The notes under the pieces: generated by a model
Databases searched by the model: none
Told to the model about the DNA's origin: nothing
What the model saw: the letters and a program-made list of their open reading frames with translations, nothing else
In this document: piece by piece, positions 110-61,200 of the stretch
Layout: the number at the start of each line of letters is the position of its first letter
Position numbering within the stretch: position 1 is the stretch's first letter
NCBI RefSeq assembly: GCF_963921235.1
Contig: NC_086097.1
Span: forward strand, 31,064,001-31,128,000
From: Mobula hypostoma
Lineage: Eukaryota
Reading direction: 5' to 3'
DNA: 64,000 nt
Made by a program: the position numbers and the translations under genes

Positions 110-397
110 TCCCCTCCTCCTTCCCTTTCTCCTATAGTCCACTTTCCTCTCCTATCAGAGTCCTTCTTCTCCAGCACTGGACCTGGCTTGCCCTATTACT
201 TTACAGTTAGCCTCCTTCCCCTCCTCCCACCGTTTTATTCTAGCACCTTCCCACTTCCTTCTCAGTTCTGAAGAAGGGCATCGGACCAAAACATCGACTG
301 CTTATTCATTTCTATAGATGTTGCCTGACCTGCTGAGTTCCTCCAGCACTTTGTGTTTGCTGCTCTGGATTTCCAGCGTCTGCAGAATCTCGTGTTA
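110..397 (+). mobile_element. Penelope-like element 3' end / pseudo-LTR fragment
   Basis: Pyrimidine-rich tract, ctgaagaagggcatcggaccaaaacatcgactg and gcctgacctgctgagttcctccagca; same sequence follows the GIY-YIG ORF at 46875-47540. Confidence 0.7.
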
Positions 398-1640: not shown

Positions 1641-1989
1641 CACCCCGGTGAAAGAGGGATATGGCTGCCCTAGCACGTGAAGTCAGCTCCAGTGGACTGG
1701 ATGGATGAGATCTACAGTGAGATCCAATAGCCAGGAAGGGCATGACAAGTCATGGTCATCCACGGTAACTAAACAAGACACCAGTTGTGATGCTTGTTCG
1801 TACCACTGGACTTGGACTTCTGAGATCGTGAGAGTGGAACTGCCCCAGTGCAACAGCTTTCCCACTTTAAAAATTCTCCCGCACACTGTGTTATCAGACA
1901 CAACGGATAACCACCATATAATGTGAAATTTGTTATTTTGTAGTTTATTATAATAAATATTAATAATTTATAGTAATAAATATAACTGG

Positions 1990-2310
1990 TTCCCCTGTTC
2001 CTCTTTCTTCTATGGTCCACACTACTCTACTATCAGATTCCTTCTTCAGCCCTTCGACCTATCCCTTCCCTGCTACTTACTTCATCCTCCTTCCCCACAA
2101 ACCCATCTTCCTCTCACCTGATCTCAGCTATCATCTGCCAGCTTGTACTGCCCCCCCCCACCTGATTCTTCCCCCTTCCTTTCCAGACCTGATGAAGGAC
2201 CTCGGCCCAAAACGTCGACTGTTTACTCCATGCTGCCTGATCTGCCGAGTTCCTTCAGCATTTTGTGTGTGTTGCTCAAGATTTCCAGCATCTGCACAAT
2301 CTCTTGTATT
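1990..2310 (+). mobile_element. Penelope-like pseudo-LTR fragment with hammerhead-like motif at 2184-2221
   Basis: cagacCTGATGAaggacctcggcccAAAACGTCgactg followed by the pLTR tail. Confidence 0.75.
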
Positions 2311-7051: not shown

Positions 7052-7440
7052 GGCAACATTGTAGTACAGCGAATAGTGCAGCACTTTACGGCGCCAGCAA
7101 TCACTGACCAGGGTTCAATTCCCGCCACTGCCTGTAAGGATTTGGTATGCTGTCCTCATGACTGCATGGGTTTCCTCCGGGTGCTCTGGTTTACTCCTAT
7201 ATTCCAGAAAGGTATGGTTTAGGATTAGATAGTTGTGCGCATGCTATATTGGTGCCAGAAGCATGGCGATAATTGCAGGGTGCCCCAAGCACAATCTTTG
7301 ACAGTAAATGTCGACCGTTTACTCTTTACCAGAGATGCTGCCTGGCCTGCTGAGTCCCTCCAGCGTTTTGTGTGCACTTCAACGCATTTCACTGTATGTT
7401 TCAATCTACATTTAACAAATGAAGCCAATCTTTACATCTT
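7052..7440 (+). mobile_element. V-SINE (HE1-like) with a short Penelope-repeat insert at about 7302-7378
   Basis: B box gggttcaattcccg, V domain tgggtttcctccgggtgctctggttt, tail acaaatgaagccaatc. Confidence 0.75.
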
Positions 7441-7645
7441 TATAGAATAAAGATCCAGTCTGGCCAACCTTTGCCTATAACTCAGGCCCTCTAGTTCAGG
7501 CATCTCTCTTGCACCCGCTCCATCTTGACAATGTATTTCCTATAAAACGGTGACCTAAACTGTAAACACACATGAGCACCTGTAAGTTCATACAGAAACA
7601 CACAAAAGCACATTAACATCTCCCAGTGATAGCAGGCAGCCCTAC

Positions 7646-7920
7646 CTCTTGCCCAGGTTGCTGACGGGTGCAGCCAGTTTCCGGGAGCTGGCAGCCGTTC
7701 GTCGCTGGGTGGCTCCCCTCTTGCCACCGCTGGCGCTGCCAGCACGGTTACTGCTGTCGCTCTCCTCTTGAACCGGCGAGCTGCTGCCCTTGCTGTTCAG
7801 ATCCCTCAGCACGTCGTAGTTTATCTTGCTGGAGATCTTCTTCTGTTCCAGCATCTTTTCTATGGCTTCGCCTGCCGTACTGGCTTGGATTGGCTCACGT
7901 TTCTTTGAGGATTTTCTGGG
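7646..7920 (-). CDS. BRF1: BRF1 coding exon (275 bp): [41 protein letters not shown]...PVSNLGK(R), homology block III plus Ser/Gly-rich linker
   Basis: ttcaaAG|CCC...AAGAG|GTagg; [26 protein letters not shown] is diagnostic of BRF1; phase 0 to phase 2. Confidence 0.96.
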
Positions 7921-8801
7921 CTTTGAAGGAGATGGAGAATAGTTTACAGTAAATTCCCTACCCAGTTATTTATCTGTTTATTTATAGATACAACACGATA
8001 ATAATCTCTTCTAACCCAATGGGTCCACACTGCCCAATTACACCCATATGACCAATTAAACTACAAACCCTGTACACCTTTCGAATGTGGGAGGAAACCC
8101 TCACAGTCACAGGGAGAACGCACAAACTCCTCACTGACAATGAAGTAAACTGAACCTGGGTTGCTGGTGCTGAACAGTTTTGCTGAATGAGAAGGGCTTC
8201 TCATTCAGAAAGAAAGGCCATGGCGTTCAAAATCTTGGATAGATTCACATATTTTCCCACTGGTATTTAATTTCTAGTTCAGCTGGAAAAATAAGAGAAG
8301 CTCCAAGGGTGGGAAGAATAACTGGGGTGACATGAAGATTGGGGTTTCACCATTGGCACTTTAATAGGATTGAGGAAGATAGACTGTGTCGGGGACGAGA
8401 ACGTCAGAGGATGTGGTGAAGTTCCAGTTTGGGATAGAAGTAGGAAATGCCACTTTTCTTAATTACAGCAGGGTGGAGGCTGGCAAGGGAGGGCAATGAG
8501 AGCTAAGAAGAAAGAATGGAAATTCAGGGAAGTTATTTCTTTCCTACCAGTGATCACTGGACAGTAACAACATGTGCTCGTGTGCATCTTGTGTCTGCAC
8601 ATACACGTACTTACACAAACATGCATACACACACACGATCACACAGACATATGCGTGCATGCGCGCGCACACGGACAGAGGCACAGTGAGGGCCAGGCAC
8701 GAACATTAGGAAGGTTTGAGCAAGACACACAAAATGCTGGCAGAATTCCGCAGACCAGGCAGCATCTATGGAGAGGAACGATGGACAAAGACTGACGAAG
8801 G

Positions 8802-9636
8802 TAGTACCAGCAACAGCACCACCAAGAGCAATATTCTCAAGATGGCTCACGAAGAAATTTCTTTCATTCTTTTTATGTCATCTTTTTCTTTTAGAAGTGG
8901 TCTGCTACCGTTGGAGCCTGTTATCGACATTCTGGTGATGTGTCTTTGGGTTGATTGGGCGACCAGGTGCTCTGCTGTCTCCGAGAGGGTACCACAAGGC
9001 AATGAGCAAAGTGTGCAGCATGGAGGTCAGGAGGCCTGGAGAAGGGCTGTGAGTCCATGACTGACTCTATCACTCGCTGATTAAAGCAGCCAGTAAGAAT
9101 GAATTCATCGAGGTGGGTGGGGAGGTGAGCGAGTGTTCAGCGTTGTCTACCAGCATCTCGCTCGTTGCTGCCGGAGGAGGGTTCCTCCTTTTCGCTCGCT
9201 GCTCCCAAAGGAAGGTCCTTGCGTTCGAATGATCTCTCTTTCCCTCAATGCTGTTGAGGATGGTTCCGGAGCGATTTGTGGATTGTGGACTCTAATTCAC
9301 ATTTATGATGTGCTTCTGGTTTCTGGTTGCTCCTTTTTTAGTTGCTAGTTTGGGCAATTTTGAATTGGGGCACCCTGCAGAAAATGAATACTGAGCTGAA
9401 CTGAAAAATGCCTTCTGATTTTGAATTTTATGTCTGGTGTTTTTGCTCATTTTTATTTGCTATTTGTGCGATTTGCTTTTGTTTTTGCGTGTGGGGGGTG
9501 GGTTTGATGTGTTTCTTTTCTTTGAACAGGTTGGGGTATCATGGTTCTTCTTTGTTTAGTGACTCTCTGCGGGGAAGGCAAATCTCTGAGTTGTATACTG
9601 CAAACATACTTTGATAATAAATGTACTTTGAACTGT
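8802..9636 (+). mobile_element. Non-coding ~0.8 kb retroposon with LINE-like tail, inserted into a Penelope repeat
   Basis: caagatggc near 5' end; ends tttgataataaatgtactttgaact like the tails near 590 and 14410; splits ctgacgaagg|...gggctcggctgaaac. Confidence 0.55.
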
Positions 9637-10035
9637 GAAAGGGCTCGGCTGAAACACTACCTGCTTATTCCTCTCCGTAGAATAAGGTCTCGCTGACTGA
9701 CCTGCTGAGTTCCTCCAGCATGTTGTGTGTGTTGCTCTGGATTGCCAGCATTGTCAGAATCTCTTGTGTTTATTAGAAAGGCTTGGCCTTTTCTCTTGGG
9801 AGTATTACAATAATCACACCACAAGCATTGTTAGTGACAAGTGACACATCAGAGTCAGGTTTTATAATCACTGCCTTATACGGCAGGAAATATGTTGCTT
9901 TGTAGCAACAGCAAAAACAGTAGAAAGTAGCAGTAGTTGCAACAAGATAAAGGACAGAGGGAGGGAAAGAATCAAGAAAGAACTGTATGTTAGCGACTGC
10001 GAAAGGCTACAGCTGGGGACTCCAGTAAATATTAC

Positions 10036-10091
10036 CTTCTGCTCTTTATAAATCCCAAGTTCCTTCTCTTTGGCTATTCGCTCTTCCTTAG
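10036..10091 (-). CDS. BRF1: BRF1 coding exon (56 bp): (A)KEERIAKEKELGIYKEQK
   Basis: ttgcAG|CTAAG...CAGAAG|GTaat; near-identical to BRF1 KEARIAKEKELGIYKEHK; phase 1 to phase 0; lies within ORF 9868..10158. Confidence 0.96.
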
Positions 10092-12607: not shown

Positions 12608-13499
12608 ATTTTATTTTGCTGTCAATTTCTGATCCCGTTCCTGGCATCAATGTGGTGAGCATTTGGGCCATGATGACAGATGAGAAAAGATAATTTATCT
12701 CAACTGCTGTTTTTATTTTGTGACAAGCACAATAACAGACAGAGTGCAACAGCTCGGAGAGAACTAACTCAGTCACATACAGACAGGGGAGGTGGTTATT
12801 AAGCATCCCGGTTACAGTCAGGATGGCACACAAACACACAAATGAATAACCATGTAGCCCGAACAAAAATAGATGAACTTGAACATCTCACCATAATTCT
12901 ACTCAACACGCACACAGCGAACGCATTTCAAAACAGGAACGATAAGTAATGCTGGTCACCAGGAATGCTGGGGCGAACTGTCAACCAAGCCCCCGGAGCG
13001 CCACAATATCATTCCTTTGTAAAACACTATTCTCATAGAATTGCCAACTGCTAGGGTTGAAGCTTTTTAATAATAAGCAGCAAAACAAAATAAACTGCTC
13101 AAGAAACTCAGCTGATCAGGCAGCATCTATGGAAAGAAATGGACAGTTAATGCTTTGAGCAGAGCATTTCATCATAAAGGCGGGCACTGTGGCTTATAAA
13201 CCCCTAACACTGCAAGTAGCCAACACAGTCACGTTGGCAAGAATATTGGAGAAAATAGCCTAGGATGGGATACAGGATGAACGTCTCTCAATCTAGTTAT
13301 TTCTCCTGTTTGATTCTGTTCCACAATGGTTGGAGAAAGTCCGGTTAATCTTTATCTGGTCAGGAAGATAACAAAGAGATAACTTGGTTATATGGCTACA
13401 AAAGCAAACTACTGCAGATGCTAGAAATCTGAAATGAAAGAAAAGATTAATAGCTGAAAATACACAGCAGATCAAGAGGTTTCATAAAGTGAACGTTCA

Positions 13500-16368: not shown

Positions 16369-16450
16369 CTTTCTGCTCTTCCAGATAGTCTGCATTCTCT
16401 TTCAGCCACAGCTCCGTCTTCTGTTCCACCTCTTCCTCATTCAGTAGGTA
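16369..16450 (-). CDS. BRF1: BRF1 coding exon (82 bp): YLLNEEEVEQKTELWLKENADYLEEQK(A)
   Basis: gtgcAG|TAC...AAAG|GTgagt; matches human [26 protein letters not shown]; phase 0 to phase 1. Confidence 0.96.
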
Positions 16451-17584: not shown

Positions 17585-18010
17585 AGACAAGAGATTCTGA
17601 AGATGCGGGGAATCCAGAGCAGCACACAAAAAATGCTGGAGGAACTCAGCAGGTCAGGCAGAAACTCTGGAGGTGAATAAACAGTTGATGTTTCAGGCTA
17701 AGATTCTTAATCAGGACTGGAAAGAAAGGGAGTAAAAGCCAGAATAAGAAGGTAGGTGATAGGGAGGAGTACAAGCTGGCAGGTGATGGGGGAAACAAGA
17801 TGAGGGGGAAGGTGGGTGGGTGGAAGTGTGGGAATGAACTGAGATAGGTGGAAGAAGTGAAGAGCTAAAGAAGAAGAAATATGATAGAGAGAACAGTGGA
17901 CCATGGAATAAAGGGAAGAAAGAGGAAACCAAAGGGATGTGATGGGCAGGTTAGGAGAAGAGAAGGGGAACCAGAGGGGAATGAAAAGAGAGAGATCAGA
18001 GGGGGGAAGA
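17585..18010 (-). mobile_element. Penelope-like pseudo-LTR fragment
   Basis: aaatgctggaggaactcagcaggtcaggc plus purine-rich tract; hammerhead-like motif at about 17683-17719. Confidence 0.75.
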
Positions 18011-18986: not shown

Positions 18987-19048
18987 CCTATCGATTTCCT
19001 GGTCATCAATCCCATTCAGGTCAAGTTCACCTTTCTGAGGATCGGCTC
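18987..19048 (-). CDS. BRF1: BRF1 coding exon (62 bp): xADPQKGELDLNGIDDQEIDR, start of Brf1 homology block II
   Basis: Minus strand cctcacAG|GAGCCGAT...ATCGATAGG|GTaagc; matches vertebrate BRF1 GELDLSGIDDLEIDR; enters in phase 1 and exits in phase 0, compatible with the next exon. Confidence 0.95.
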
Positions 19049-19608
19049 CTGTGAGGAGAGAGAATAAACAACATTTTCAGTGCATAAGGTGCCCCTTATG
19101 TGCTCGGCTCTCTGGCCCGGTTCAGAAGCAATATTTACTTTTGTACTACATTGAACACACAGCAGTACAGCACAGTCCAGGCCCTTCAGCTCACGATGTT
19201 TTTCCAATATTTTAACATCCTCTAAGATCAATTTAATCCTTCCCTCCTATATAGCCCTTTATGCTTCTAATATCCATGTGCCTAATGTATCTGCCTCTAC
19301 CACCACCCCTGGCAGGGAGTTCCACATATCTGCCACTCTTTGTGTAAAAGAAAACTATTTCTGATGCTCCCCCCCATACATTCCTCCAACCAGCTTAAAA
19401 TTATCTCCCCTTCTTGTATTATCCATTCCTGCTCTGGGGAAGGTTATCTCTGGCTGTCCACTCTATCTATGCCTCTTATCATCTTGTACACATCTATCAA
19501 GTCACCTTTATGTACCATACTTAGATATGATCTCTGAATAAACCCCGGAACTTTCAAGGAGAGTCAGTAAACACTTAATCAGATAAAGGTTTAGTCAAAC
19601 AGGAGGTT

Positions 19609-21598
19609 GTTGTTGTGCAGTCGTTAAGACAATTCTGACTCTCCGTGACCTCACGGAGTCCTGCACACCAAGCCTTCTTGTTGGAAACTGCCTCTCTAAG
19701 ATCACCCAAGGTCTGAGTAATATTATCTATGCATCGTAGCTTCTGTCATCCTCGTCTTACCTTCTGTTTTACCTAACATGAGAGTCTTCTCCAAGGAATC
19801 CTGTCTTCTCATGATGTGGCCAAAATATTTGAACTTCTATCTTACTTCAGTGATTGGTAAGTTGATGGAAAAGATCCTGAGAGGCAGGATTTATGAACAT
19901 TTGAAGAGGCATAATATGAATAGGAATAGTCAGCGTGGCTTTGTCAAAGGCAGTTTGTACCTTACGAGCCTGATTGAATTTTTTGAGGTTGTGACTAAAC
20001 ACATTGATGAAAGTAGAGCAGTAGATGTAGTGTATATGGATTTCAGCAAAGCATTTGATGATACCCCATGCAAGGCTTATTGAGAAAGTAAGGAGGCATG
20101 GGATCCAAGGAGACATTGCTTTGTGGATCCAGAACTGGCTTGCCCACAAGAAGGCAAAGAGTGGTTGTAGACGGGTCATATTCTGCATGGAGGTCGGTGA
20201 CCAGTGGTGTGCCTCAGGGATCTGTTCTGGGACCTCTACTCTTTGTGATTTTTACAAATGGCCTGGATGAGGAAGTGGAGGGATGGGTTAGTAAATTTGC
20301 TGATGACACAAAGGTTGGGGGTGTTGTGGATAGTGTGGAGGGCTGTCAGAGGTTACAGTGGAACTCTGATAGGATGCAACACTGGACTGAAAAGTGGTAG
20401 ATGGAGTCCAACCCAGATAAGTGTAAGGTGGTTCATTTTGGTAGGTCAAATATGATGGCAGAATATAGTTTTAATGGTAAGACTCTTGGCAGTGTGGAGG
20501 ATCAGCGGGAGCTTGTGGTCTGAGTCCATAGGACACTCAAAGCTGCTGCACATATTGACTCTGTGGTTAAGAAGGTATATGGTGCATTGTCCTTCATCAA
20601 TCGTGGGATTGAGTTTAAGAACCAAGAGGTAATGTTGCAGATACATAGGACCCTGGTCAGATCCCACGTGGAGTAATGTGCTCAGTTCTGGTCTCCTCAC
20701 TACAGGAAGGATGTGGAAATCAGAGAACGGATGCAGAGGAGATTTACAAGGAGGTTGCCTGGATTGGAGAGCATGCCTTATGCGAACAGGTTGAGTGAAC
20801 TCGGCCTTTTCTCCTTGGAGCGACAGAGGATGAGAGGTGACCTGATAGAGGTGTACAAGATGATGAGAAGCATTGATTGTGTAGATAGTCAGAGGCTTTT
20901 TCCCAGGGCTGAGATGGCTAGCACAAGAGGGCACAGTTTTAAGGTGCTTGGAAGTAGATACAAAGGAGAGGTTAGTGGTAAGTTTTTTAACGTAGAGAGT
21001 GGTGAGTACGTGGAATGAGCTGCCAGCGATGGTGGTGGAGGTGGTTATGATAGGGTCTTTTAAGAGACTCCTGGATAGGTACATGGAGCTTAGAAAAATA
21101 GAGGGCGGGTAACCCAGGCAATTTCTAAGGTAAGGACATATTTGGCACAGCTTTGTGGGCCAAAGGGCCTGTATTATGCTGTAGGTTACCTATGTTTCAT
21201 AATCAAGCCTCCTAGTAAGCAGTAAGGCTGCATTTCTTCAACTTTCTCCAGCATCCAAGTTCAAAAGCATCAATTCTTTTGTATTCAGCCTTACTAATAG
21301 TCCAGCTCTCACAGCCATACATCAGAACCGGAAATATCATAGACTTGACTACACGGATCTTTGTAGCCAATGTTATGTCTCTGCTCTTCAGTATTTTATC
21401 TAAATTTGCCATTGCTGCCCATCCCAGAAGTAAGCGCCATTTAATTTTGTGGCTGCATTTACCATCTATAGAAATCTTTGAACCGAGGAAGACAAAATCT
21501 GTCACTGCTTCCACTTCCTTTCCATTTATTAGCACAAAGTTAATAGGGCTGATTGACATAATCTTGGCTTTCTTAACAATGAGCAACAATATTACAAG
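19609..21598 (-). mobile_element. BovB-like RTE LINE (5'-truncated), interrupted by a CR1 insertion
   Basis: FLGSKIS..G.CSH.IK.RLLLG..AM.NLDKILKSRDITLATK...YGCESWT..KAE.KRIDAFEL.CWR (21212-21589) continues across the insert as KFKYFGHIMRRQDSLEKTLMLGK; (CAA)n tail; AGGAGGTT duplicated at 19601-19608 and 21599-21606. Confidence 0.9.
19839..21193 (+). mobile_element. CR1/HER1 LINE ORF2 RT 3' ~1.35 kb, frameshifted
   Basis: LTSVIGKLMEKIL...VDVVYMDFSKAFD; SGVPQGSVLGPLLF...KFADDTK; ends ctatgtttc. Confidence 0.93.
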
Positions 21599-21629
21599 AG
21601 GAGGTTAGGAGAGGCTAAAAAGAATAAAC

Positions 21630-21860
21630 TCAAGAGATTCTGCAGATACTGGAAATCGTGAGCAACACAAGTGAAATACTAGAGGAACTCAGCAGATCAG
21701 ATAGCATCTACGGAGGGGAATAAACAGTTAGCATTTCGGGCTGAGACCCTTCATGGCGATGATAGGTCCTGATGAAGGGTCTCCACCGGGAGTGTCAACT
21801 GTTTATCCATCTCCATAGATGCTGCCTGACCTGCTGACATCCTGCAGCATTTTGTGTGCT
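21630..21860. repeat. Inverted (head-to-head) pair of Penelope pLTR ends
   Basis: gaggaactcagcagatcag...gagacccttcat / atgaagggtctc...ctgacctgctga; arms are reverse complements around a short spacer. Confidence 0.75.
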
Positions 21861-23083
21861 TTACTTACGTATTATCTCCGAACAAGCCCAGGAGCTTTTG
21901 AGGAGTGTTAGTAGGCACTGAATCAGATAAAGGCTTGGTCTAAGAGGCAGGTTAAAAGAGAAACGAGGTAATGAGATTAAGGGTGGAGTTATGAAGGCCA
22001 ATGAACCAAAAGTTCTCTTTACTTACAGAACATTAAACATCACAGCACAGTAAGGCCCTTCAGCTCACGATATTGTGCTGACCTTTTAACCTGCTCGAAG
22101 ATCAATCTAACCCTTCCCTCCTACAGAACCCCCCCGCCCAATGTATCTCTATTCCATGTGCCTATCTAAGAGTTTCTTAAATGTTTTTAATGTACCTGCC
22201 ACTACCATTACCTCTAGCAAGGTGTTTCATGCACCAACCACTCTCTGTGTAAAGAACTTACCTTTGACGCCCCCTCTATATTTTCCTCCAATCACTTTGT
22301 ATTAGTCATAATACTTCTGCTCATCGACAATGTACAATATTCTTGCCAGTTTCTAGCCAACAATCAGTGTATTCTAATTGTTCAAATATCCAAATTTAAA
22401 ATGATAAACATATTATTAGAATGAAACAGAAAGGGCTCCTCTTGTTCTGCAAGAATTCTCAGCAAGTGCACAGTGAGTCTTTCACTACTCCAATGTTTCT
22501 ATTAGATGTGACCCTGCTTTAGTGAGTGGGTTGTAATGGAGGTGAACTTGGAGCAGGTGAAATAATCCAAATTCTCCCTTTGGGTCTTCGCTCCGGGGGA
22601 CAGCACTGAGATAACACAATAATTGAACACAGCCATCAAGCAGCTGCTGGTACAATGCACCTCGCCTTGTTTTGAAACCCCATCCACAGGACTGAAACTT
22701 TTGTTTTTTGAAGAGCTGGGTGTTTTAAGTGGCCTCATTAAAGTGCAGACTGACCCTGCCTGAGGGGGATTTCCTCAGAAAGGGAGAACCAGTCCGGTTT
22801 TTTCAAACCACAGCTAGAACAGGGTTATGGTAACACTGTGCTGAAGCTGCTGGACAAGCAAACAAAGGCTTTGACTACTGATCCGATGATGTGGATATGA
22901 ACTTCATCAAGGGAGCTCAAATAATTAAATCAGTCTGGAATTAAGAGATAGTCTCAGATTGTTATAAACCACCCCCCCCCCATTGCTTCTTTTAATGTCC
23001 TACAGGGGAGGAAATTTACCATCCTCACCACTCTAGTCCATCCGTGACTCCAGACTCATTAATGCAGACAAATGACCTGAGAC

Positions 23084-28545: not shown

Positions 28546-29589
28546 GAGACACAAGAGACTGCAGATTATGGAACCAATCAGATGAATGGGCTAGGGCCCA
28601 AAGCTCCGACCGTCCATTTCCTTCCACAGATACTGCCTGACTTGCTAAGTTCCTCCAGCATTTTATGTGCGCTGTTGAAGATTTTCACCGTTTGCAGAAT
28701 TTCTTGTGTTTCTGCAGAGGGTGGAAAACGCTGCACATATTGGTATTGTGGAACCTGTAAAAAGCAGGTACAGATTTGACAGCTGTCTATTCCATTGGCA
28801 CGTAGAATTACAATGGATTTACAGCAGTGAAACAGACCATGATGATGCTCCGCAGGCGATCTTCTCCAATTTATGTCATCTCACTCTCAGTAATCCTTCT
28901 ATTTTTGTGTATATCCAGTTTCCTCCCAAACCAATCTATGTTATTTTTCATAAAGGTCTCCATGATCAACCATTCCAGTTAGTAATGCATTGTGAACACT
29001 CTAGTCCACTACATATTATTCTGTTTACATTGCAAATACATGATGATATAAATGTATTTATGCACATTTATTCAATATCTGTACTTTAATCTCTAACTTC
29101 CAATTTTTTGTATAATTCCTTCTACTTTATCATCGTTGAAGGTTGTCTTTTGTTGCATGTTGTGCCCTGACCAACACACCACAGTAAATCCCTAATACAT
29201 GTAAATGTATATGGCGAATAAAGTTGATCCTTGATGTAATCTCCTTGACTTACTCTGGGAAAGAAGTTACAGAAAGTTGTAAAATTAGTCAGCTCAATCA
29301 TGGGTACTAGCCTCCGTAGTATCCAGGACATCTTCAAGGAGCGGTGTCCATTATTAAGGAACCTCATCAGCCAGGACATGCCCTCTCCTCACTGTTACTG
29401 TCAGGAAGGAGGTACAGAAGCTTGAAGGCACACATTCAGCAATTCAGGAACAGCTTCTACCCCTCTGCCATATGATTCTGAAATGGCCACTGAACCCACA
29501 ACCACCACCTCACTTTTTAAAAAACATATTATTTCTGTTTTGCACTATTTTTAAATATAACTATTTAATATACATATGCATACTGAACA

Positions 29590-33334: not shown

Positions 33335-33584
33335 ATGCTCAAAATCCAGCAATGTGGACGAGTGATGAAAGACCTCTGCAGTCCAGGCCTCTGCTCTGTG
33401 CTCAAAGACCAGCGACATGGTTCGGTGACAAAAGATATTTGCAGTCCAGGCCTCTGCTCTGTGCTCAAAGACCAGCTACGTGGTTGGGTGACAAAGGACA
33501 TCTGCACTCCGGGTCTTTGCTCTGTGCTGAAACATCAGCTACGTGGTTGGGTGACAAAAGATATTTGCAGTCCAGGCCTCTGCT
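33335..33584. repeat. 63-bp minisatellite, about 4 units
   Basis: tgca(g/c)tcc recurs at 33377, 33440, 33503 and 33566 (period 63). Confidence 0.92.
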
Positions 33585-34194
33585 TGAAGGTCAGCAAACA
33601 GTAGTCTGTGCAACAGGAGCCATGAGGAGGCACGATTTACTGATTTGTTTTGTTGTCTGTTGTGTTCTCTTTTGTTCTGTTCTATGTCGTTCATTGTGGG
33701 CACACTATGATGGCGCTGGAATGTGTGGCGACACTTTTGGACTGTCCCCAGCACACCCTTGGGTGTTGGTTGTCGATGCAAAGGAAGTCATCCATTGTAT
33801 GTTCTGACGTACTGTACACGTAATAAATAAATCTGAATCTGAATCCAGTCTGATCTGAATCAGGAGTCCATGGACGAAGTGGGTGCATCTACATGCTTCT
33901 AATTATTTAATGAAACAGAAATACCTGAACATACGAAAAGCTGGAGGAACTGAATGGGTCAGGCAGCATCTACGGAGAGCAGTGGACAGGGCTAAAAGCA
34001 TTGACTGCCTATTTCCCATAACAGGTGCTGCCTGACTCAGTGAGCTCCTCCATAACTTTGTGTGTCACTTAATATTTCTAGCATCTGCAGTCTTGTATGC
34101 CTGCACTCAACCTTACCACTGTTCACTATTCATGGGGTCTCACTGTGTCCCAGATGTTTATCACGTCCACCAGGATACATTACTGCTCTCCGCA

Positions 34195-37520: not shown

Positions 37521-38259
37521 TGTAGTATTCTATGTTCTACAGTGATTGCATCTGACTTGAATTTAGTTGCATTTTTTTACTGAAGGAATAAAAACAGATA
37601 ACTAAGACAATGTGCATTAAATGTCACTGGTAACTGCTTTATGGGAAAAAGACAGACAGGAGGCAGGAAAGAGAAGAATATACGGGGGCGGAATCTAAAT
37701 GTACTTTGCACAGAAGAGTACTGACTCACTCAGACACAACCCACTCAAATGCCAAATAGGAATGAATTATCCTCTTCCACCTCCTTGTTCGGGAGCTGAC
37801 CAGACACAGGTATACCCAGTCTTACACCTACTCCAGCAGTCTGTTGGTAAGCCCTAACATAAGCTGAACCTGCCTCCATTACAAGCAGCAGTTGGGCTTT
37901 ACATTTCAACGCAGTCCATCTATGTTCTCACAATTTCTGAGCAGTGTTGGTTTGCGGTTCGAAGGGTCTGAATTGGTTTTCTGCTCTCCATTCCCAAATG
38001 TGAAAGAGAGAACAGATTATGATTAGAGTAACACACATAAAATGCTGGAGGAACTCAGCAGGTCAGACAGCATCACAGGAGAGAAATAAAGTTGTCGTTT
38101 CTGGCTGAGACCCTTCATCACAATTCTGATCAGCACCCAAAATCTCGGCTCTTTATTCCTTTCCATAGATGCTTCCAAATCTGCTGAGTTCCTCTACCAT
38201 TCTTTGTGTGTTACACTGGATTTCAAGCATCTGCAGCACCTGTTGTATTAAAGATAAAG

Positions 38260-40625: not shown

Positions 40626-43129
40626 TTTAAACTCGACCTTGCCAGATTATGTACTAACCAAACCACACTGTGAGAGATGACAGAATGGATGCACATGATT
40701 TCGGATTTGTGGCTTTTCGATGAAATAAGGTGCAAGCAGCACCGAGAGTGTTGCTTTGACATCAGCACAGATGACGTAAGTAACCCAGTGACGTGTATCA
40801 TTATAACTGCATGCATTATTTGAATTCCTCCTCAATGTCAGCAGTCGGCTGCCTCCAACAACACCAATCAGTGAGTTAAACCTACTTACACTAACAGATG
40901 TGTATGACAAGTACAAGATAGTGACAACCATAATCTTCCCTATTGTTTCAAATTTTGAAAAGAGGTCACAACACATGGATTCAAAACCAGAGGGAGTGGA
41001 TTAGATTGAATGGTTGACACCACACTGTGGGCTGAAGGGTCTGCTGAATTGTCATTACAGGAATGGAAATAAGTACACATTTTGCTGCAGCACCTTCACC
41101 TTGTCAACGAAAAGTAAACGATCACTCCAATTGCAGAGGGTAACCAATTAGGTTCAATTCCTCTGTCGAACCATGTCATTCCCACTGTCCGCCCACACAA
41201 CCCTGGCCGCCTCCAGCCACCAACATTAAATAAGCCGTTCCCATTCAGAGCGCACAAATAAAACCCGGCTGTCTTGCTGATTGGGAATCCTTTTCAGAGA
41301 CGCTTGGAACAAAAAGGCAGACACATTTCAGTAAGGGAATTATACAATCCAACTGGACCACCACAGTATTTACTCTTCAGCCCTCTCCTTGTATTTACTG
41401 GTCTTGATTGTTGAGCTAGTTTCTGTCTTAATCAACAACCCCAAAAAAGCATAATTAACCTTCATAAAAAAAACTCCTCCTGCTAATTATTGTCTTGAAC
41501 TAAGACCCTTCAACCACTGGAGACAACTTAAACTTGGACTGACTTACTATAAGGGGTTTAAGTATTACATCTGGGGAGCCTATAACCTGATGGCATAAAC
41601 ATCTTTTTCTCCAACTTCTGGTAAGTTCTCCCCACCCCATTCTCTTTTTCTATTCCCCATTCTGGCTCCCTTCTTACCTCTGTCCAACACCTCCCTCTGG
41701 ATCCCCTCCTACTTCCCTTTCTCCCATGGTCCACTGTCCTCTCCTATCAGATTCCTTCTCCTTCACTCCCTTACCTTTTCCATCCATCCCTTCCCAGCTT
41801 CTTACTTCATTCCCCCCACCTTCCCCCTCATCCAGTCTCACCAATCAACTGCTGGCTTGTACTCCCCCCAACTACTTATTTAGGATTCTGATCCCCCTCC
41901 AGTCCAGTTGAAGGGTCTCGGCTCAAAATGTCAACTGTTTATCTCTCTCCATAGATGCAGGCTGACCTGCTGAGTCACCCCAGCATTTTGGACTTTAGAA
42001 AAGAGATGAGGAGGAACCTCTTTAGCCCAGATGGTGGCGAATCTGTGGAACTCATTGCCAAGAATACCTGTAGAGGCCAAATCATTGGTATATTTAAAGT
42101 GGAGATTGATAGGTTCTTGATTAGTAAGGGCATCAAAGATTACAGGGAGAAGATAGGAAAAATAAATCTGCCATGATGAAACGACAGAGTAGACTCAATG
42201 GGCCAAATAGCCTAATTCTGCTCCAGTGTTTTGTGGTCTTCTGATTGTATGTGTTACTCTGGATTTCTAACAACTGCAGACCCTCATGTTTATGAATATT
42301 CAAGTATTTCTTTGTACGTTACAGTATCGAGCGTTCTTCTGACTCTATTCAATCCTCAGAAAGGTCTCAGTCTCCCTTCCAGCTTGGAATCCAATGGGGC
42401 ACGTTCTCCAACTGAAGTCTTAGGGCTCTGTTTATCATTACTAGCTGTCCATCATGTGGCAGAGTAAAGACCACCACACCTTTCAGTGCGCAGCGAGCGG
42501 ACGGATTGATGCGTTGGCGGTTACCTCTGGTGTCTCTCGCTCTCCACCTCCCACTCACATTCAGACACACAATCAAGTGGAAGAGACAAGAAAGATCCAC
42601 GCACAAAAATGGGTGAGTCAGCCTGAGACTAATTACTGGAGAGGTGAATTGAGGTTGACAGTGTGGGAGGCTATCAAGCATGCTTGGAATCACTCAATAA
42701 TTCCAAAAATAACTTGTATCAGTGGGACCACTTTAACACATCAAATTAATTTGTACATTACCAAGGCCCCATCATCGGTGCAATCAATGGTTGAATAGTG
42801 AAGTAGTGCAAAAAACAGGAAAATTTCTTCAATGGTGTGGCAGTGAGTGCCCATAATGGACCTGGATGAGTTTATAACCCTCTGCAGCTTTTACCGATCC
42901 TGTGCTGTGACTGCTCCATACCAGATGGTAATGCAATCTGGTAGAATTCTCTACAATGGAACTCTGCAGAAATTTGTTACAGCCTTTGGTGACATACAAA
43001 ATCTCCTCAAACTCCTAGTGAAATAGAACGGCTGTTGTGCCTACTTTGTATTGAGTGGTAACCAACTGGGAACATGGGGTGCTGTGACCCAACCACAAAG
43101 ATCTATTTCCATCTTGCATTCAGTCTTTT

Positions 43130-44920: not shown

Positions 44921-45976
44921 TACCTTCTATGCACCGATGTTGGTGGTTCTGAATGATTCATTTAGTCCTCTGCCCCAGTCACCAACATCAGTAGTACAAC
45001 CCAGGGTATTAAGGGCAGGTTAGGAAGCACAGACTCTGCTGAGGAATTCATACTTCCTTTGGGCTTTGCTTTTATGTGTGTCGACTGGATGATGGGCTAT
45101 CTTTACACAGGGAAATCAGAATCAGGTATATTATCACTGACACGTGTCGGGAAATCTTTAAACTATGTTGTTTGCTGGGTTGAGTGGTGCTGCATCAACA
45201 GCTTTGCACTCAATTAGGGACATTTAAGAAACTCTTAGACAGGCACATGGAAGGATAGGAAAATGGAGGGCTATGCGGGAGGGAAGGGTTAAAAGATCAC
45301 CTCAAAACCATGGGCTGAAGGGCCTTTACTGTGCTGTACTGTTCTATGTTCTAATATCAGTAAGACCAAGAACTGCTTGTGGACTTCAGGAAGGGGAAGC
45401 TGGGAGAACACACAACAGTTCTCAAATCGGTCGGCACAGAAAGACAAGCAGCCAAAGTTCCCGGGCATCAACATCAATCCTGGGCTACCGATGCAATCAT
45501 GAAGAAGGCACACCAGCAGCAATACTTCTAAAGACCATACCTAAAGTGTTACAACATCAAAATACTCCACGGTAGGATATCAGATTGATCTGCATTCTAC
45601 TTTAATGTTTTCAAATGTTACAGCTTCCGACCTTCCTCTCAGAAGATTCTGAATATGCTTTTCATCTGCTATTCAAAGTGAAACCAATCAATAACTTATT
45701 ACACACACCACCAAGCAGCGTACTGAAGCTTACATTCCTGTGTCTCCCTGGTTTGTGATATGATTCAGTTTACACTCTGTGCTTATGTCTAGTGTCTGGA
45801 TACTCCAGCAGAAGACAATTATATGAGTGGATGTGGATGGCTGTTAATTACCTTCCTATAGAAGATAAACACTCACAAAATGCTGGAGAAACTCAGCAGG
45901 TCAGGCAGCATCGATGGAAACGAATATTCATTTTGATAGATTCTGCCTGACCTGCTGAGTTCCTCCAGCCTTTTCG

Positions 45977-46874
45977 CAACACACACAAAATGCTGGAGGA
46001 ACTCAGCAGGCCAGGCAGCATCTACGGAAAAGAATACAGTCGACGCTTTGGGCTGAGACCCTTCATCAGGACTGGAGAAAAAAAGATGAGGAGTCAGAGT
46101 AAGAAGGTGGGGGAGGGGAGGAAGAAACACAAGGTGAGAGGTCAAACCAGGAGTGGGGAAGCGGGTGAAGTAAAGAGCTGGGAAGTTGATAGGTGAAAGA
46201 GATACAGGGCTAGAGAAGGGGAAATCTGATAGCAGAGGACAGAAGGCCATGGAGGGAAGAAAAGGGGGAGCAGCACCAGAGGGAGGTGATGGGCAGATAA
46301 GGAGATAAGATGAGAGAGGGAAATGGGAATGGGGAATGGTGTAGAGGGGTGGGCAATACCTGAAGTTTGAAAAATCAGTGTTCATGCCATCAGGTTGGGT
46401 GCTGTCCAGATGGAATATAAGGTGTTGTTCCTCCAACTTGAGTGTGGCCTCATAGCAATAGTAGAGGAGGCCATGGACTGATGTATCAGAATGGGAATGG
46501 GAAGAGGAATTAAAATGGGAGGCCTCTGGGAAATCTTGCTTGTTCTGGTGGACGGAGTTTAGGTGCTTGGCAAAGCGGTCTCTCAATCTACATCCAGTCT
46601 CACCGATAAATAGGAGGCCGCATATGGAGCATCAGACACAGTATATGACCCTAACAGACTCACAGCTGATGTGTCGCCTCACCTGGAAGGACTGTTTGGG
46701 CCCTGGATGGTACTGAGGGAGGAGGTGTAGGGGCAGGTGTGGTACTTGTTCCGGTTGCAAGGATAAGTGCCAGGAGGGAGATCAATGGGGAAGGACGAAT
46801 GATCAAAGGAGTTGTGTAGGGAACAATCCCTGTGGAAAGCAAGAACTGGGGAAGTGGGGGGGGGGAGAGGGAAA
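45977..46874 (-). mobile_element. Penelope-like element: GIY-YIG endonuclease region plus pLTR
   Basis: GTYPCNRNK..TCPYTSS...IYC..CS.CGLLFIGETG.RLRDRFAKHL...SHFNS.SHS...LEEQHLIF.L...QPDGMN. Confidence 0.9.
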
Positions 46875-47540
46875 GAGCACCCACGCTCCATCCGCCAGAG
46901 AAAACGGAATCCCCCAGAGGCCACCCATTTTAATTCCACTTCCCATTCCCATTCCGACACGTCAGTCCATGGCCTCCTCTACAGTCACAATGAGGCCACT
47001 CTCAAGTTGGAAGAGCAACTTCTTATATTCTGTCTGGGTAGCCCCCAACCTATTGGCATGAACATCGATTTCTCGAACTTCTGGTAATGTCCCTGCATCC
47101 TTCACCATTCCCTATTCCCATTTCCCTCTCTTACCGTATCTTCTTACTTGCCCATCACTTCCCTCTGGTGCTCCTCCCCCTTTTCTTTCTTCCATGGCCT
47201 TCTGTCCTCTCCTATTAGACTCTCCCTTCTCCAGCCCTGTATTTCTTTCACCAATAAACTTTCCAGCTCTTTACTACACCACTCCCCCTCCCAGTTTCAC
47301 CTATCACCTTGTGTTTCTTTCTCCCTTTTCCCCACCTTCTTACTCTAACTCCTCATCTTTTTTCTCTTCAGTCCTCATGAAGGGTCTCAGACCAAAATGT
47401 CAACTGTACTCTTTTCCATAGTTGCTGCCTGGCCTGCTGAGTTGCTCCAGCATTTTGTATGTTTGCTTGGATTTTCAGCACCTGCAGATTTTCTCTTGTT
47501 TGTTATTTTCCTTCAGCATTTTGTGTGTTTTGCCTTGGAT
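46875..47540 (+). mobile_element. Inverted second Penelope copy (GIY-YIG C-terminus plus pLTR)
   Basis: EHPRSIRQ...ATHFNSTSHSHSDTSVHGLLY...LKLEEQLLIFCLGSPQPIGMNIDFSNF (ORF 46812..47087). Confidence 0.9.
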
Positions 47541-47875
47541 TATGAGATGATGAGAGGCATTGATCATGATGATAGTCAGAGGCTTTTTCCCAGGGATGAA
47601 ATGGCTAGCAGGAGAGGGGACAGTTTTGAGGTGCTTGGAAGTAGGTACAGAGGAGATGTCGGGGTAAGTTTTTTACGCAGAGAGCAGTGAGTGCGTGGAA
47701 TGGGCTGCCGGCAATGGTGGTGGAGTCGGATATAATAGGGTCTTTTAAGAGACACCTGGACAGGTAAATGGAGCTTAGAAAAATAGAGGGCTATGGGTAA
47801 CCCTAGGTAATTTCTAAGGTAAGGACACGTTCCGCACACCTTTGTGGGCCGAAGGGCCTGTATTGCGCTGTAGGC

Positions 47876-49083: not shown

Positions 49084-49684
49084 CTGTAGGCTTTCTATGT
49101 TTCGATGTTTCCAGCATCTTCAGATTTTCCTGTGTTTGTGTTCCCACAGAAGTTTGATATCTGTTCAAGGAACGCCTAAGACTATAGGATATAGGAGTAG
49201 AATTATGCAATTTGGCCTATCAAGTCTGCTTCATCATTATTTCATGGCTGATTTACTATTCCTCTCAACCCCATTCTCCTTCTTATCTCCGTAATCCTTA
49301 ATGTCCTCACTTATCAAGAGCCTATCAAGTTCCATGTTAAATATACCCAATGACTTGGCCACCTCAGCTGTGTATGGCAATGACTTCTACAGATTCACCA
49401 TTCTCTGGCTAAAGAAATTCCTCCTCACCTCTGTTCTAAAAGGACGTCCCTGTATTCTGAGGCTGTGCCCTCTGGTCCTACACTTCCCCACTATAGGAAA
49501 CATGCACTCTATGGCCACTCAATATTCAACAGGTTTCAATGAGATCCCCTTACATTCTTCTAACACAAGGACGATGGGGAAAATGTGCAGATTATCTGAG
49601 ATCAAAAAAAAGAAACCTGGAAGTCAGTAGGTCAGTCAGCACCTGTGGATAGAGAGAGTTAATGCTTCAGATCAATGACCTGCT

Positions 49685-51071: not shown

Positions 51072-51700
51072 GGGCTACTGCATCCAGTGTCCCCAGTGCA
51101 GCCTCCTCTACATTGCTGAGATCTGATGTAGATTGGGGGAATCAAGCATTTTTGCTCTGTCTGCAAAAGACAGGATATCATAGTGGCCAATCATTTTAAT
51201 TCCACTCCCCATTCCCATTCCAACATGTCTGTCCATGGCCTCTTCTACTACCACAATGAAGCCACTCACAGATTGGTAGAGCAACAACTCATATGACGGC
51301 ACGAATATTAATTCCTCTAACTTCTGGTAATTTCTCCCCTCTCCTCCCTTCTCTCGTCTTTCCATTCCACATTCTGGCTCCTCTCTTACCCTTTCTCTTT
51401 CCCTACCCTCTGGTGCTCCTCTTCCTTCCCATTCTCCCATGGTCCACTGTCTTCTTTTATCAGATTCCTTCTTCAGCCTTTCCTCTCCCAGCTTCGTACT
51501 TTATCCCCACCCACTCGACTGATCTCACCTATCACCTGTCAGATTGCACTCACTCCTTACCCTCCCCTCATTCTGGCTTCTTCCTCCTTTTTTCCAGTCC
51601 CGATGAAGGGTCTCAGCCCAAAACATCAATTGTTCATTCCTCCATATGTCCGACCTGCTGAGTTCCTCCAACATTTTGCGTGTGTTAAATCTCGTGTTAA
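51072..51700 (+). mobile_element. Penelope-like GIY-YIG plus pLTR fragment
   Basis: YCIQCPQCSLLYIAE; cattttaattccactccccattccc; pLTR with ccgatgaagggtctcagcccaaaac. Confidence 0.8.
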
Positions 51701-53172
51701 TGAACCAAGCATTTAATTTCAATGCTGCCATCTCTTCTGAGGGACCCTCAGACAGCAGCTTTTAAACACTCACCATTTACACTGAGCTGGTTAATAGCCT
51801 TACCATTTACAAATTGGTGCAGTTTAAAAGGAGAAGGAACTACAGAGGGTGTGAAGAAATGATTGATTGACCAACCTCGAAAGAAATTCCTCAAAGGCCT
51901 ATTCATCAAAGTCTCTGAATCATTTTGCTTCACCAAGCAATGCTCCAGCCACATTATATTAGACTTCTCTCTGGAGACTTGCAGATTTATTGTGAGGGGA
52001 AGACATTAAAGCATAGGTTACAACTAAATTATCTTTCACCAATATTCCTTCACACTGTTTTCCCTCATTTGGCTTCTCATTAAACATTCTAGCCTCACAG
52101 CCCTCTTCCTTATTTCGGTTTTCTGATTTCAAATTGAAGAGTTGATTCAGCTGTCATACCAGGTTTCTTTTCTTTCCCCAGAAATTAAGGAGCTGGTCCA
52201 TCTGTGGCTATTACACGCTCACCTCTTAACCCAACACACTTAGCCTTAGTGATGTACTATAGTTCTTGTCTCCCAAGAGCTTTGAATTTTTAAATTATCT
52301 CCTTTATCATTGCCTGGCCCCGTTACCCCTCCCCTTCCCTCTTGATCCGATCACATCTCCTTTCCTTTACTCTATGACCCATTGTCCTCTCCTATCAAAT
52401 GCCATTTTCTTCAGCCCTTCTGTCACTTCCATGCATCACCTCCCAGCCTCTTACATTATTCCCAATCTCCCCCACCCTCAGCTGCCTAACACTCCCCACC
52501 CCAACCCGGAACCATCCAGCACTCACCAGCCCTCATTCCACTCCTTCTACCAATCTCTTTCTACTTGCTATCCCATCTATCTTTTTAGTCCCAATGAAGT
52601 ATCTCAACCCAAAACTTCAACTATCCAGCGGAACACACACAAAATTGCTGGAGGTTTTAATAAACAGTCAGCACTTTGGGCTGAGACACTTTATCATCCT
52701 CGAATCATTGACTGTTTATTCCCCTCCACAGATGCTGCCTGACTTGCTGAATTTTCTTCAGCATTTTGTGTGTGTTGCTCAAAATTTGCTCCATCTGCAG
52801 AATCTCTTGTGTTAAACATTTGCTATCTATTTCCCTCATAGACATTGCCTGACCCATTGAATTCCTCCAGCATTTTGTGAGTTGTTCCAGATTTCCAGCA
52901 TCTGGAATTTTATATCTCATTAAATAGTTAAATCCCTCTCTTAGCAGCCCACTCCAGCCTCCTTTTAGTTTAGTCATCAACAATGCCAAGAACACCTTCT
53001 CTGAACCTCTCTCTTACTATTTAACATGGATCATTGAACACTACAACACAGTATAGGCCTTTCGACCCACGATGTCGTGCCAACCTTTTAACCTACTCTA
53101 AGATCAATCTAACTCTCCCCCCCCCACATCGCCCTGCATTTTTTTATAATCCACATGACTGTCCCTAATGTA

Positions 53173-58240: not shown

Positions 58241-61200
58241 ATTTCTACATGGATTCATGAACAGAACTGACTGCCAAGGTCATTGTGTTCTCGGACCCTG
58301 AAGAATCTTCTTTTCTTGTGTAAACTTCACTTCAGTTTGTACGAGGGGACAATGTTAAAGAAAGTAAATATTTCTGGAGATAAACTGGAGTATAGCCAAG
58401 GCGGGTGTGGAGATTCTCTTACGATTGAAGTGCATGATTTTTGTCTATATGAATTTGTATTGAAATCAACATGGCCAGTTTCCAAAGGAGACATTGACCA
58501 TAATAATGTTGTTAGGGGTCGAGAAACAAGTTGTGGTAAAAGGGCAAGAGCAGTCTTGTAAGCTATGAGCAGGCTGATGTGAACAGCTGTGATCTGGCGT
58601 GCAGAGATAGAGTGTTCAAATGCAGCAACCCCCAAGCTGGTCAATCTCAGATGGAAAAGCAAGTGGCAAGAAAACACAGCTCAGTACTCCAGTCTATAAA
58701 GTAGTTGTACATGGTTCACTGCAGGTAGGAGTCATGGGTGGGCAGGGTGGTGAAGAAGGCTTTTGGCATGCTGGCCTTCATCAGTCAGGGCATTGTGAGC
58801 AGTTTTGGGGCCCATATCTAATAAAGGAGTGTGTGGGCATTGGAGAGAGTCCAAAGGAGGTTCAGAGAATGATCCCGAGAAGGAAAAGATTAGCACAGGA
58901 GGAGCTTTTGATGGCTCTGGGCCTATATTCGCTGGAGTTTAGAAGAATAAATGAGTTTTATAAGGAGCGTCTTGGATTAGATGCGTCCCATGGTTCCTGT
59001 TAATTCAAAGCAAATCCTTTTCCACTAAATGCTCACATATTCCCATTTGCTGCTTTCAACAACAGACATTCAGTAATGTTTCACTGAGAGAGTAATGACA
59101 AGTCCACTTCAAACATTCGGCCCATTATAATTCAAACAGAAACACGCTTCAAGTGGAGTACCGATCTATGTGGTAAAGATGCTGGATCAGTGATCAAAAG
59201 ACAACCTTCCACGGCAGTGAAGGATCTTAGGTTTAAGCATGGTAGAAGGAATGAGGCTCTTCTCATTGCCACCATCAGGGAGGGGGTACAGGAGCCTGAA
59301 GACACAGTCTCAACTTTTTAAGAGCACCTTCTTCCCCCCGACAATCAGATTTCTGAACAGACAATGAACCATGAACACTACCTCACTACTTTTGCCCTCC
59401 TTGCACTTCTTATTGTAACAGTCATTCTTCACATATTGTACTGTCACAAAACAACAAATTTCATGACTTGTCAGTGCTAATAAAGCTGATTCTGATTCCA
59501 TGTATGAAAGAAAACACATACCATGCATAATGCAGAGTAACACATATAAAATGCTGGAGGAACTCAGCAGGTCAGGTGGCATCCATGGAAAGGAACAAAC
59601 AATCAATGTCTGGGCCAACACCTTTCAACAGGACTATGCATTATGCATATGCAATTCTACGCACAAACCCATAAATAAATTGCCGAATTATAGGTCACGT
59701 CTTTACCCTGCAATTCTCGGCTGAACAGTATTAATGCAAAATGCAGCAAAAATTAAATGAACGACAGTATTCCCCATCACACAAATCTTCAAAGAAAATG
59801 TACCCACTCAGCGGCCTACAAATGCAAATTAATCAAATTTACATTGCGATTAAATGTAAATTACTAAAATGTCTTTTCTCATTTAGTTTGCATAACACTT
59901 GAAATAAAATTCACTGTTCGAGCAATTTATGAAGTTGCTTAATCTTCTTAGAATTTTTTTTGACTTGTGTGAGAATTCCAGATGAAATGATAAATCAGAT
60001 AAACAAAGAGCTCAGTGTAAATAAATAAATCTGGAATTTAAGATATGAAGATTAAAAAATGTTCCTCTCAATAAGCGACAAACCACTGACTTATCACAGA
60101 ATTAAAGTCACTCAGGGAGAGGAATTTGTTATCCTTCTCCACAGAGTGGTGGGTGCCTGGACCAGGCTGTCCAGAATGGTGTTTAACTCTGGACTGGAAA
60201 CAGCTACAATAGTGGTGTTTAAGAGGTATATGAACATAGAGAGAATGGAAAGATACGGATCATGTGCACTCAGATAAGCTTACTTTAATTAGGCTTCATG
60301 GTTGGCACATGCATCACAGGACGAAGCTCTTGAACTACACTGTTCTATCTTCCCTGTCCTTCATCAGGACAGGGAGATGCTGGTAATCCAACTGTACGAC
60401 GAGAACACTTTCACCACACACACAGAATGCTGGACATTTCCAGAGATACTGCCTGACCTGCTGAGTTCCTCTAGCATTTTGTGTGTTTTGCATTGGATTT
60501 CCGGCATCTGCAGATTTTCTCATATTTGTGACACTTTTTACAGAGCTCGAGCCCAAAGCAAGCGGTAAACTGTATTCAATTGAATTTAAGGAAGGAAATC
60601 AGCAACGAGGAGGTGCACTCCCCACCAGTTCAGTGAGTCATAGGCAGGGGAAGGTGGGAAGTGGGGATGCTGGGAGGTGATAGGTGAAAGAGGAAATGGG
60701 CTGAGAAGGCGGACTCTGATAGGTTAGGAGCATGGACCATGGACCATGAAAGAAAGGGAATGAGGTGGTAGAGAGAGAGAGAACAGAAGACGATAAGATA
60801 GGTTGTGAGGACAGGGGAGGGGGAAAAAGAAGAAGTAATGAATCCAGAGACGTGAAGGTGGGAGAGTATTTAAGGATGACCAGTAGAGGATTTAGTGAAG
60901 AGCATCTTGAGAAGGGCATTAGTAAAAGAGATTAGTGGAAGGCTAATCCACAGGGATTGTTGGACCATGGACCATGTTGGACCACGGGGGTGTCATGGGA
61001 TTAAGCTCTATTAGGAGTGACTGAGAAAATGCACTGAGAATGCAGAATATAACTGGAGAATGGAAGGGAAGGATATGGTGATATTAAGTTACAGTGAAGA
61101 GCCTGCTTCTGCCCTCTGAAATTCACCACCATTCTAAATAATAAATGTGACAACTGCCCAGACTGACTGGTGGCAGGATGTCCACACTGTTCTGGCTGGT

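Follow-up and report, generated by a model that had tools for sequence, protein, structure and literature searches.

Decayed copies of a Penelope-like element end with a probable minimal hammerhead motif in the BRF1 region of the ray Mobula hypostoma

Introduction

Minimal hammerhead ribozymes were described in the pseudo-LTRs of metazoan Penelope-like elements (PLEs) by Cervera and De la Pena (2014, PMC4209133), and the family from the ray Mobula hypostoma presented here adds a member to a kind of element that has been in print since then. The ray motif, rebuilt from decayed copies, shares with the minimal hammerheads of that study the type I topology, a 5-bp stem I, the core CUGANGA followed by one extra base, the G10.1-C11.1 pair, GAAA, a palindromic CG without a loop III, a U-rich 5' flank, and an occurrence mostly as single dispersed copies from truncated elements. 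It differs in its short stem II, where 4 bp, one of them U-G, enclose a loop of 4 nt, and in its core variant, which is A6 to C (A6C) in the ray run data and U3-A8 in the published set. The 56 motifs in Fig. S3 of that study include no cartilaginous fish.

PAc, a Poseidon element of Anolis carolinensis (Frangieh et al., 2024, PMC11167929), likewise carries a hammerhead in its terminal repeat, and its insertions pass the cut site into the tail, as they do in the ray. PAc belongs to the Poseidon clade and its ORF starts within the hammerhead, whereas the ray element has a Cys linker and is known from sequence alone. The anole ribozyme is reported to cut only with the protein of its element, and ribozyme mutants leave insertion in vitro unaffected (PMC11167929); in published assays from other species, monomers showed no cutting and dimers low cutting. 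Neptune and Nematis elements (Craig et al., 2021, PMC8557442) share with the ray family a C-terminal GIY-YIG domain, a Cx2-5CxxC linker, and inverted, 5'-truncated partner copies, whereas the ray window holds damaged remnants only. [quoted passage not shown]

Type I hammerheads linked to PLE terminal repeats also occur in the non-LTR retrozymes, which are reported in one chondrichthyan genome (bioRxiv 10.64898/2026.07.22.740005), and the ray family may already be in the supplements of that preprint. Retrozymes are head-to-tail tandem units, whereas the ray family occurs as dispersed and head-to-head copies: in the window (the whole 64-kb stretch of DNA analysed here), whole hammerheads do not form tandem pairs, and the closest same-strand whole motifs lie 991 and 1921 nt apart and are broken. 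The hammerhead of phage Bcep176 (Naghdi et al., 2020, PMC7151607) carries the same A6C substitution that makes up 6-19% of ray run depth, the former being a single phage ribozyme tested in vitro and the latter a share of a retroelement family with 0 copies in the window. A search confined to the literature found no paper on Penelope in Mobula, on a hammerhead ribozyme in elasmobranchs, or on the ray family.

Results

The reading frame at 7645-7965 on the minus strand contains the Pfam BRF1 domain, and its best match was the BRF1 named for Mobula hypostoma, with 93 residues identical. Approximately residues 444-603 of BRF1 could be assigned to four minus-strand exons running from 19051 to 7646, at 18987..19051 (about residues 444-465), 16369..16450 (about 466-492), 10036..10091 (about 493-511), and 7646..7920 (about 512-603, with the Pfam BRF1 domain). 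No block matching residues 1-443 or 604-688 was found within the 64-kb window, and I infer from this that the whole window lies inside BRF1. Minus-strand copies of the element are thus sense to BRF1, as a first-pass annotation of this DNA had proposed, provided that BRF1 continues intact outside the window. The 45 kb from 19052 to 64000 carry no BRF1 exon for residues 1-443, which would imply a very long intron in an intact gene.

Copies of the 3' end of the element were searched for in the window using an nhmmer profile built from seven long copies and a cut-off of E<=0.01. This yielded 30 copies, equal to 5.5% of the window, three of which appeared by eye to come from a related family and were retained in the counts. 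Of these, 21 copies span 10 or more of the 38 motif columns, and seven span all 38. All nine hammerhead sites of the first-pass annotation were recovered in place or within a few bases, while its estimate of about 10 copies proved too low. Every copy is either a tail piece or extends beyond the cut site, 22 of the 30 are short, and copies are joined head-to-head in no fewer than five pairs, which fits the PLE architecture of 5'-truncated copies and inverted partners with a shared tail. Target-site duplications were unconvincing, with shared words of just 5-7 nt at 7 of 10 insertions.

Since the full core is present in none of the 21 copies that cover the motif, each is termed a relic here. The relic first flagged, at 2184..2221 on the plus strand and therefore antisense to BRF1, lacks G12 and has one mismatch in stem I and one in stem II, and it is the only one of the 21 copies in which positions 15.1-17 are intact. 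It sits in an insertion spanning 1986..2310 (plus strand), in which a pyrimidine-rich 3' untranslated part is followed by the hammerhead and then by a tail of about 90 nt. Further plus-strand relics were found at 263..300 (core 10/11, G12 lost; insertion at about 114-395), 9636..9663 (5'-truncated, with G12), 28579..28612 (with a short inverted tail ahead of the motif), and 41900..41937 (insertion from about 41584), and the 3' part of a hammerhead at 7306..7317 within an insertion at 7306-7384. Relics on the minus strand, sense to BRF1, lie at 13144..13173 (5'-truncated), at 17682..17719 (G12 present, G8 lost, stem II broken; insertion at about 17587-17983), and at 59600..59635, where the insertion starts at the outer edge of stem I; a hammerhead part at 49656..49681 (minus strand) belongs to a more divergent copy, by eye from the related family. 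Inverted arrangements occur at 21631..21865 (short copies, head-to-head, with hammerheads at 21725-21755 on the minus and 21766-21801 on the plus strand), 33924..34083 (one partial hammerhead, 33990-34007, plus), and 38025..38229 (38090-38120, minus, and 38136-38151, plus). A complex cluster at 52326..52906 contains hammerhead pieces at 52586-52622 (plus), 52665-52696 (minus), and 52701-52714 (plus).

The window holds other repeats as well. Large inverted repeats at 53171-54866, 87-94% complementary, flank a DDE_3 transposase fragment that I take to be Tc1-like, and LINE reverse-transcriptase fragments (RVT_1), presumably CR1-like, lie mutually inverted at 19721-21015 and 56589-57291. A 130-codon frame at 21215-21604 (minus strand), without a Pfam match, adjoins the palindrome at 21.6 kb and presumably represents a piece of an RTE-type LINE. 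At 33336-33584, a 63-nt tandem repeat lies within long open frames that had no Pfam match. A hairpin at 39637-39717 with weak Rfam microRNA scores below the gathering thresholds is probably a fragment of an inverted repeat.

The earlier proposal that this repeat is the end of a PLE was borne out by GIY-YIG remnants directly upstream of three copies and by full-length homologues with reverse transcriptase (RT), Cys linker, and GIY-YIG. The longest copy, at 45973..46840 on the minus strand and sense to BRF1, comprises a linker Cys motif and a GIY-YIG remnant (46359-46840) with a frameshift and a stop, a pyrimidine-rich spacer of 285 nt, a hammerhead at 46037-46074, and the tail. Its inverted partner at 46830..47486 (plus strand) has the same order of endonuclease end (46830-47084), spacer, hammerhead (47369-47406), and tail, as does the copy at 51076..51697 (plus strand; remnant 51076-51293, hammerhead 51595-51632). 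A fourth copy, the insertion around 41900..41937, keeps the last ORF codons, and the distance from the ORF end to stem I is 271-288 nt. The three remnants match the protein P0123 at 53-67%; their relatives include proteins of 813 and 609 residues with RT and GIY-YIG at 41-44% identity, homologues matched both Pfam GIY-YIG and atlas GIY-YIG clusters, and RT together with GIY-YIG is present in the homologues P0173 and P0233. A Pfam search with the window remnant alone gave no match, and no RT remnant was found within the 64-kb window. A linker of the Cx2-5CxxC type occurs in P0123, P0173, and P0260; it is intact in P0123, the closest match, and damaged in the window at 46691-46771. This linker marks Neptune and Nematis alike (PMC8557442), and the sequence points to a PLE that is likely of the Neptune type, with a linker that it would have in common with Nematis.

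The region 45865-47543 around the longest copy is a nested insertion, in which two long inverted arms join near 46835 within the endonuclease, and which also contains a tail piece that is repeated and a short palindrome of tail sequence. The palindrome, at 45865..45974, consists of two tail pieces without a hammerhead and adjoins the long copy; microRNA-like Rfam matches at 45868-46045 correspond to this palindrome of the element.

Positions in the motif are given in the standard hammerhead numbering scheme. As noted in the first-pass annotation, no copy is perfect: 10 of the 11 core positions are kept in three copies (263, 2184, and 17719) and all 11 in none, and the commonest lesion is G12 to A (13 of 20 copies). 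G12 is retained at 17694, 21737, and 38101, as claimed there, and additionally at 9651, 21789, 49668, and 52702, so that it is present in 7 of 20 copies and absent from the window majority. The consensus that had been put forward, CAGTC-CTGATGA-A-GGG(TCTCRG)CCC-GAA-AC-GT-C-GACTG, is therefore a reconstruction that differs from the plain majority, which has A at 12, A at 1.1, and a tie at 16.2, yet it is supported by the pattern of CpG decay. Four CpG sites (in loop II, at 11.1/12, at 15.2/16.2, and at 17/1.1) gave 15 CG, 15 TG, 35 CA, 5 TA, and 9 other dinucleotides in 79 cells, while none of the 115 cells at six control CA sites held TG, and G at position 12 (7/20) exceeded the A-to-G background of 17/358 (p=2e-5). 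CpG decay thus explains the loss of G12 from the window majority. CA nevertheless outnumbered TG at the CpG sites (35 vs 15, p=0.007), and this excess, together with a G12 share of just 39% in one run (X9, below), hints that part of the G12 loss was inherited from source copies and did not arise by neutral decay, a pattern to which reference bias could contribute.

The decay of the hammerhead after insertion proceeded at the rate of its flanks, with a core identity (143/169) equal to that of the flank (1322/1561, p=1.0) among window copies. Of the 21 window copies, 7 carried G in place of A15.1 (p=4e-5 without correction), a change far rarer in the runs, and 4 carried the mirror change of U16.1 to C; both changes were above the background and the run level.

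Contigs from 4 of 24 listed public runs (X1, X5, X9, and X16) were then aligned to 45975-46214 at 80% likeness; X16 is RNA by guess and the other three are DNA runs. The DNA runs contributed 124,643, 143,703, and 152,571 aligned contigs, which are fragments and not copies. G12 made up 66, 66, 39, and 51% of depth in the four runs even though the reference carries A, A15.1 made up 88-96%, and losses at 15.2, 16.2, 17, and 1.1 amounted to 11-29% each (depth-weighted, four runs). In each of the four runs, the loose-end consensus rows at 46036 retained both G12 and the GAAAC stretch, and no accumulation of contig ends was listed. The contigs thereby restore a GAAAC/GUC core, and the main test proposed in the first-pass annotation, whether a genome-wide consensus would lack GAAAC, came out in favour of the hammerhead. 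Contig depth dropped upstream of the motif and then climbed at a conserved block; its use as a truncation curve was set aside because of this second rise.

At the core position A6 (reference 46066), C accounted for 17, 16, 19, and 6% of contig depth across the four runs, and C at N7 (reference 46065) for 20, 20, 10, and 6%. C6 was found in none of the 15 window copies covering A6. The A-to-C background in the window is just 5/358, so C6 was likely inherited by a subfamily, and its share of 6-19% of depth suggests an amplified subfamily whose ribozyme would be crippled. The substitution is reported to harm Mg2+-dependent cleavage and to spare cleavage with Mn2+ (PMC7151607).

The family consensus, from column counts with the CpG test and from the genome-wide letters, has the core CUGANGA, GAAA, and U16.1-H17, and an extra base following A9, the pair G10.1-C11.1, a palindromic 15.2/16.2, and a U-rich 5' flank, all listed in PMC4209133, recur in the rebuilt motif. 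The motif thus fits every element of the published metazoan consensus, and its assignment as a minimal type I hammerhead was upheld. Stems I and II can pair, alongside a palindromic minimal stem III, with 80% of 81 cells paired compared to 11-41% when slid, for a structure that was derived from the same sequences. Compensatory change, expected earlier as covariation, was seen in just 1 of 9 pairs among nine window copies, which 352 of 500 shuffles also reached in what is a weak test; its lack is expected among decayed copies of one family, and it is consequently the agreement with the published consensus that speaks for the structure. When the rebuilt motif was folded with nearest-neighbour models, which ignore the core, an inactive rod was preferred (-12.7 against -10.5 kcal/mol; hammerhead fold p=0.02) and the dimer form was not favoured. 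The suggested scan with hammerhead models turned up nothing, as the 18 Rfam matches in the window at E<=5 included no hammerhead. A strict descriptor run over the window had no match at 0 or 1 core mismatch, and at 2 core mismatches it had 4, one of them a real copy, compared to 0-3 in 8 shuffles; individual window copies, taken alone, are not above chance. Metagenome, viral, and prokaryote contigs, each scanned with a pattern, gave 0 matches, which is uninformative for a vertebrate repeat.

The spacer upstream of the hammerhead resembles an intron in some respects, with donor-like and acceptor-like sites called by the splice-site consensus. In the longest copy, a candidate intron of 288 nt at 46072..46359 (minus strand) would open with a donor-like GT where the ORF ends and close with an acceptor-like CAG, whose three bases are also the first of stem I. 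Spacers of 271-288 nt, all pyrimidine-rich, give further candidates at 47084-47371, 51327-51597, and 41621-41902 (all plus strand). A donor-like GT stands at the ORF end in 4 of 4 copies, and all eight long copies have YAG, after a pyrimidine tract, as the first stem I bases. The resemblance to an acceptor is weak, however, since the spacer is about 80% pyrimidine throughout and has 3-5 AGs. A weak search for predicted proteins extending into the hammerhead exon found none, and an intron that opens at the ORF stop codon and closes within stem I appears somewhat unlikely on these sequences.

The 5' ends of copies were not evenly placed. In a count that omits two copies starting further downstream, joins one long copy from two pieces, and includes inverted pairs that are not independent, 20 of 28 5' ends fell within 49 columns, which reach from the edge of the motif to 17 nt beyond the cut, and the 195 nt upstream held none (naive p=4e-9, or 6e-5 with just 10 independent events). 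Nine of them lie at columns 120-131, the outer edge of the motif. A peak at the cut site itself was considered and rejected, as the nearest starts among the 20 are at columns 152 and 153.

Discussion

Taken together, the repeat is very probably the 3' end of a PLE that had a minimal type I hammerhead in its source copies, while the copies in the window are mutated and likely do not cut. That the hammerhead is an artefact, a short GC-rich hairpin turned into a ribozyme by picking minority bases, has in its favour the window majority without G12, the silence of Rfam and the strict descriptor, and the absent covariation. Yet the bases picked coincide exactly with CpG partners, run depth restores G12 in three of four runs and G16.2, C17, and G1.1 in all four, and the location of the motif within the terminal repeat is the published one; with the genome-wide contigs already contradicting it, this reading is barely credible. 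An effect of sense hammerheads on the host gene, hinted at in the first-pass annotation, fared no better. Eight hammerhead-bearing copies lie on the BRF1 strand within its introns, and three copies from the earlier list keep G12, so that they might be imagined as working ribozymes which regulate BRF1 by cutting its pre-mRNA, be it singly, as dimers, or in trans together with RNA of the element. None of the eight, however, has the full core or A15.1-C15.2-G16.2-U16.1, neighbouring sense copies are 3.0-16.4 kb apart, the core is no more conserved than the flank, and the strand is unbiased (12 of 30 copies sense, p=0.36; 2 of 8 long copies, p=0.29). As all eight are broken and at least 3 kb apart, cleavage of BRF1 pre-mRNA by the window copies is unlikely, and its regulation by them can be given hardly any weight. 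Selection against sense copies was rejected on the same strand counts, which were not significant.

Two further readings concern the way in which the family spread. The short copies could belong to a non-autonomous element of its own, with its transcription start or a splice site at the hammerhead's 5' edge, and not be random truncations, which would account for the crowding of 5' ends in the 49-column hammerhead zone with none in the 195 nt upstream, for the nine starts at columns 120-131, and for the acceptor-like YAG after a pyrimidine tract in all eight long copies. The starts are not sharp, though, being spread across 12 columns, and many are inverted junctions and thus not independent; a spliced genomic copy was not found by eye among the 30 copies, and the acceptor is weakened by the pyrimidine content and AGs of the whole spacer, leaving this an improbable account. 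The other reading accepts the motif as real and is compatible with a hammerhead-bearing PLE, differing on whether cleavage matters: it may be irrelevant to at least some sources, with core-changed subfamilies (A6 to C, perhaps G12 to A) having been amplified. This is suggested by the depth shares of C6 and of C at N7 against the low A-to-C background, by the reported harm of A6C to Mg2+-dependent cutting (PMC7151607), by the anole ribozyme mutants with unaffected insertion in vitro (PMC11167929), and by the CA excess at 11.1/12 (12 vs 3). Against it, C6 is in 0 of 15 window copies, the shares are of contig depth and not of copies and depend on the reference copy, and the majority still has A6 and an intact core. 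I consider dispensable cleavage a tentative possibility that falls short of an even chance. The joint proposition, in which an A6C subfamily (about a sixth of the element's hammerheads) spread though crippled or metal-switched and stem I also straddles the acceptor of an intron at the ORF stop, is doubtful; if true, it would be genomic proof of PLE spread without its ribozyme or with a metal-switched one, and splicing would rewire the ribozyme and the protein end together.

For the favoured hammerhead-bearing PLE, a life cycle may be outlined by analogy with the described elements. In an active element, read-through RNA of tandem copies could let two motifs pair via the palindromic ACGU, or alternatively the element's own protein might fold a single motif, and by either route C17 would be the site of slow cleavage. 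RNA that escaped cutting would be the template for reverse transcription, which would begin about 90 nt downstream, and the extension of copies about 90 nt beyond the cut site fits such a start; frequent early stops would then give rise to short and head-to-head copies. After insertion, the four CpGs in the motif likely decay by methylation, with G12, G16.2, and G1.1 being lost first.

With this family, rays join the animals whose PLEs carry minimal hammerheads, and as found it is otherwise of little import. The role of PLE hammerhead ribozymes is an open question (PMC8557442), and a family this abundant permits the success of intact-core and altered-core subfamilies to be compared within a single genome. 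An A6C subfamily, if young and amplified, would constitute in vivo evidence for dispensable cleavage, in agreement with the lone in vitro result.
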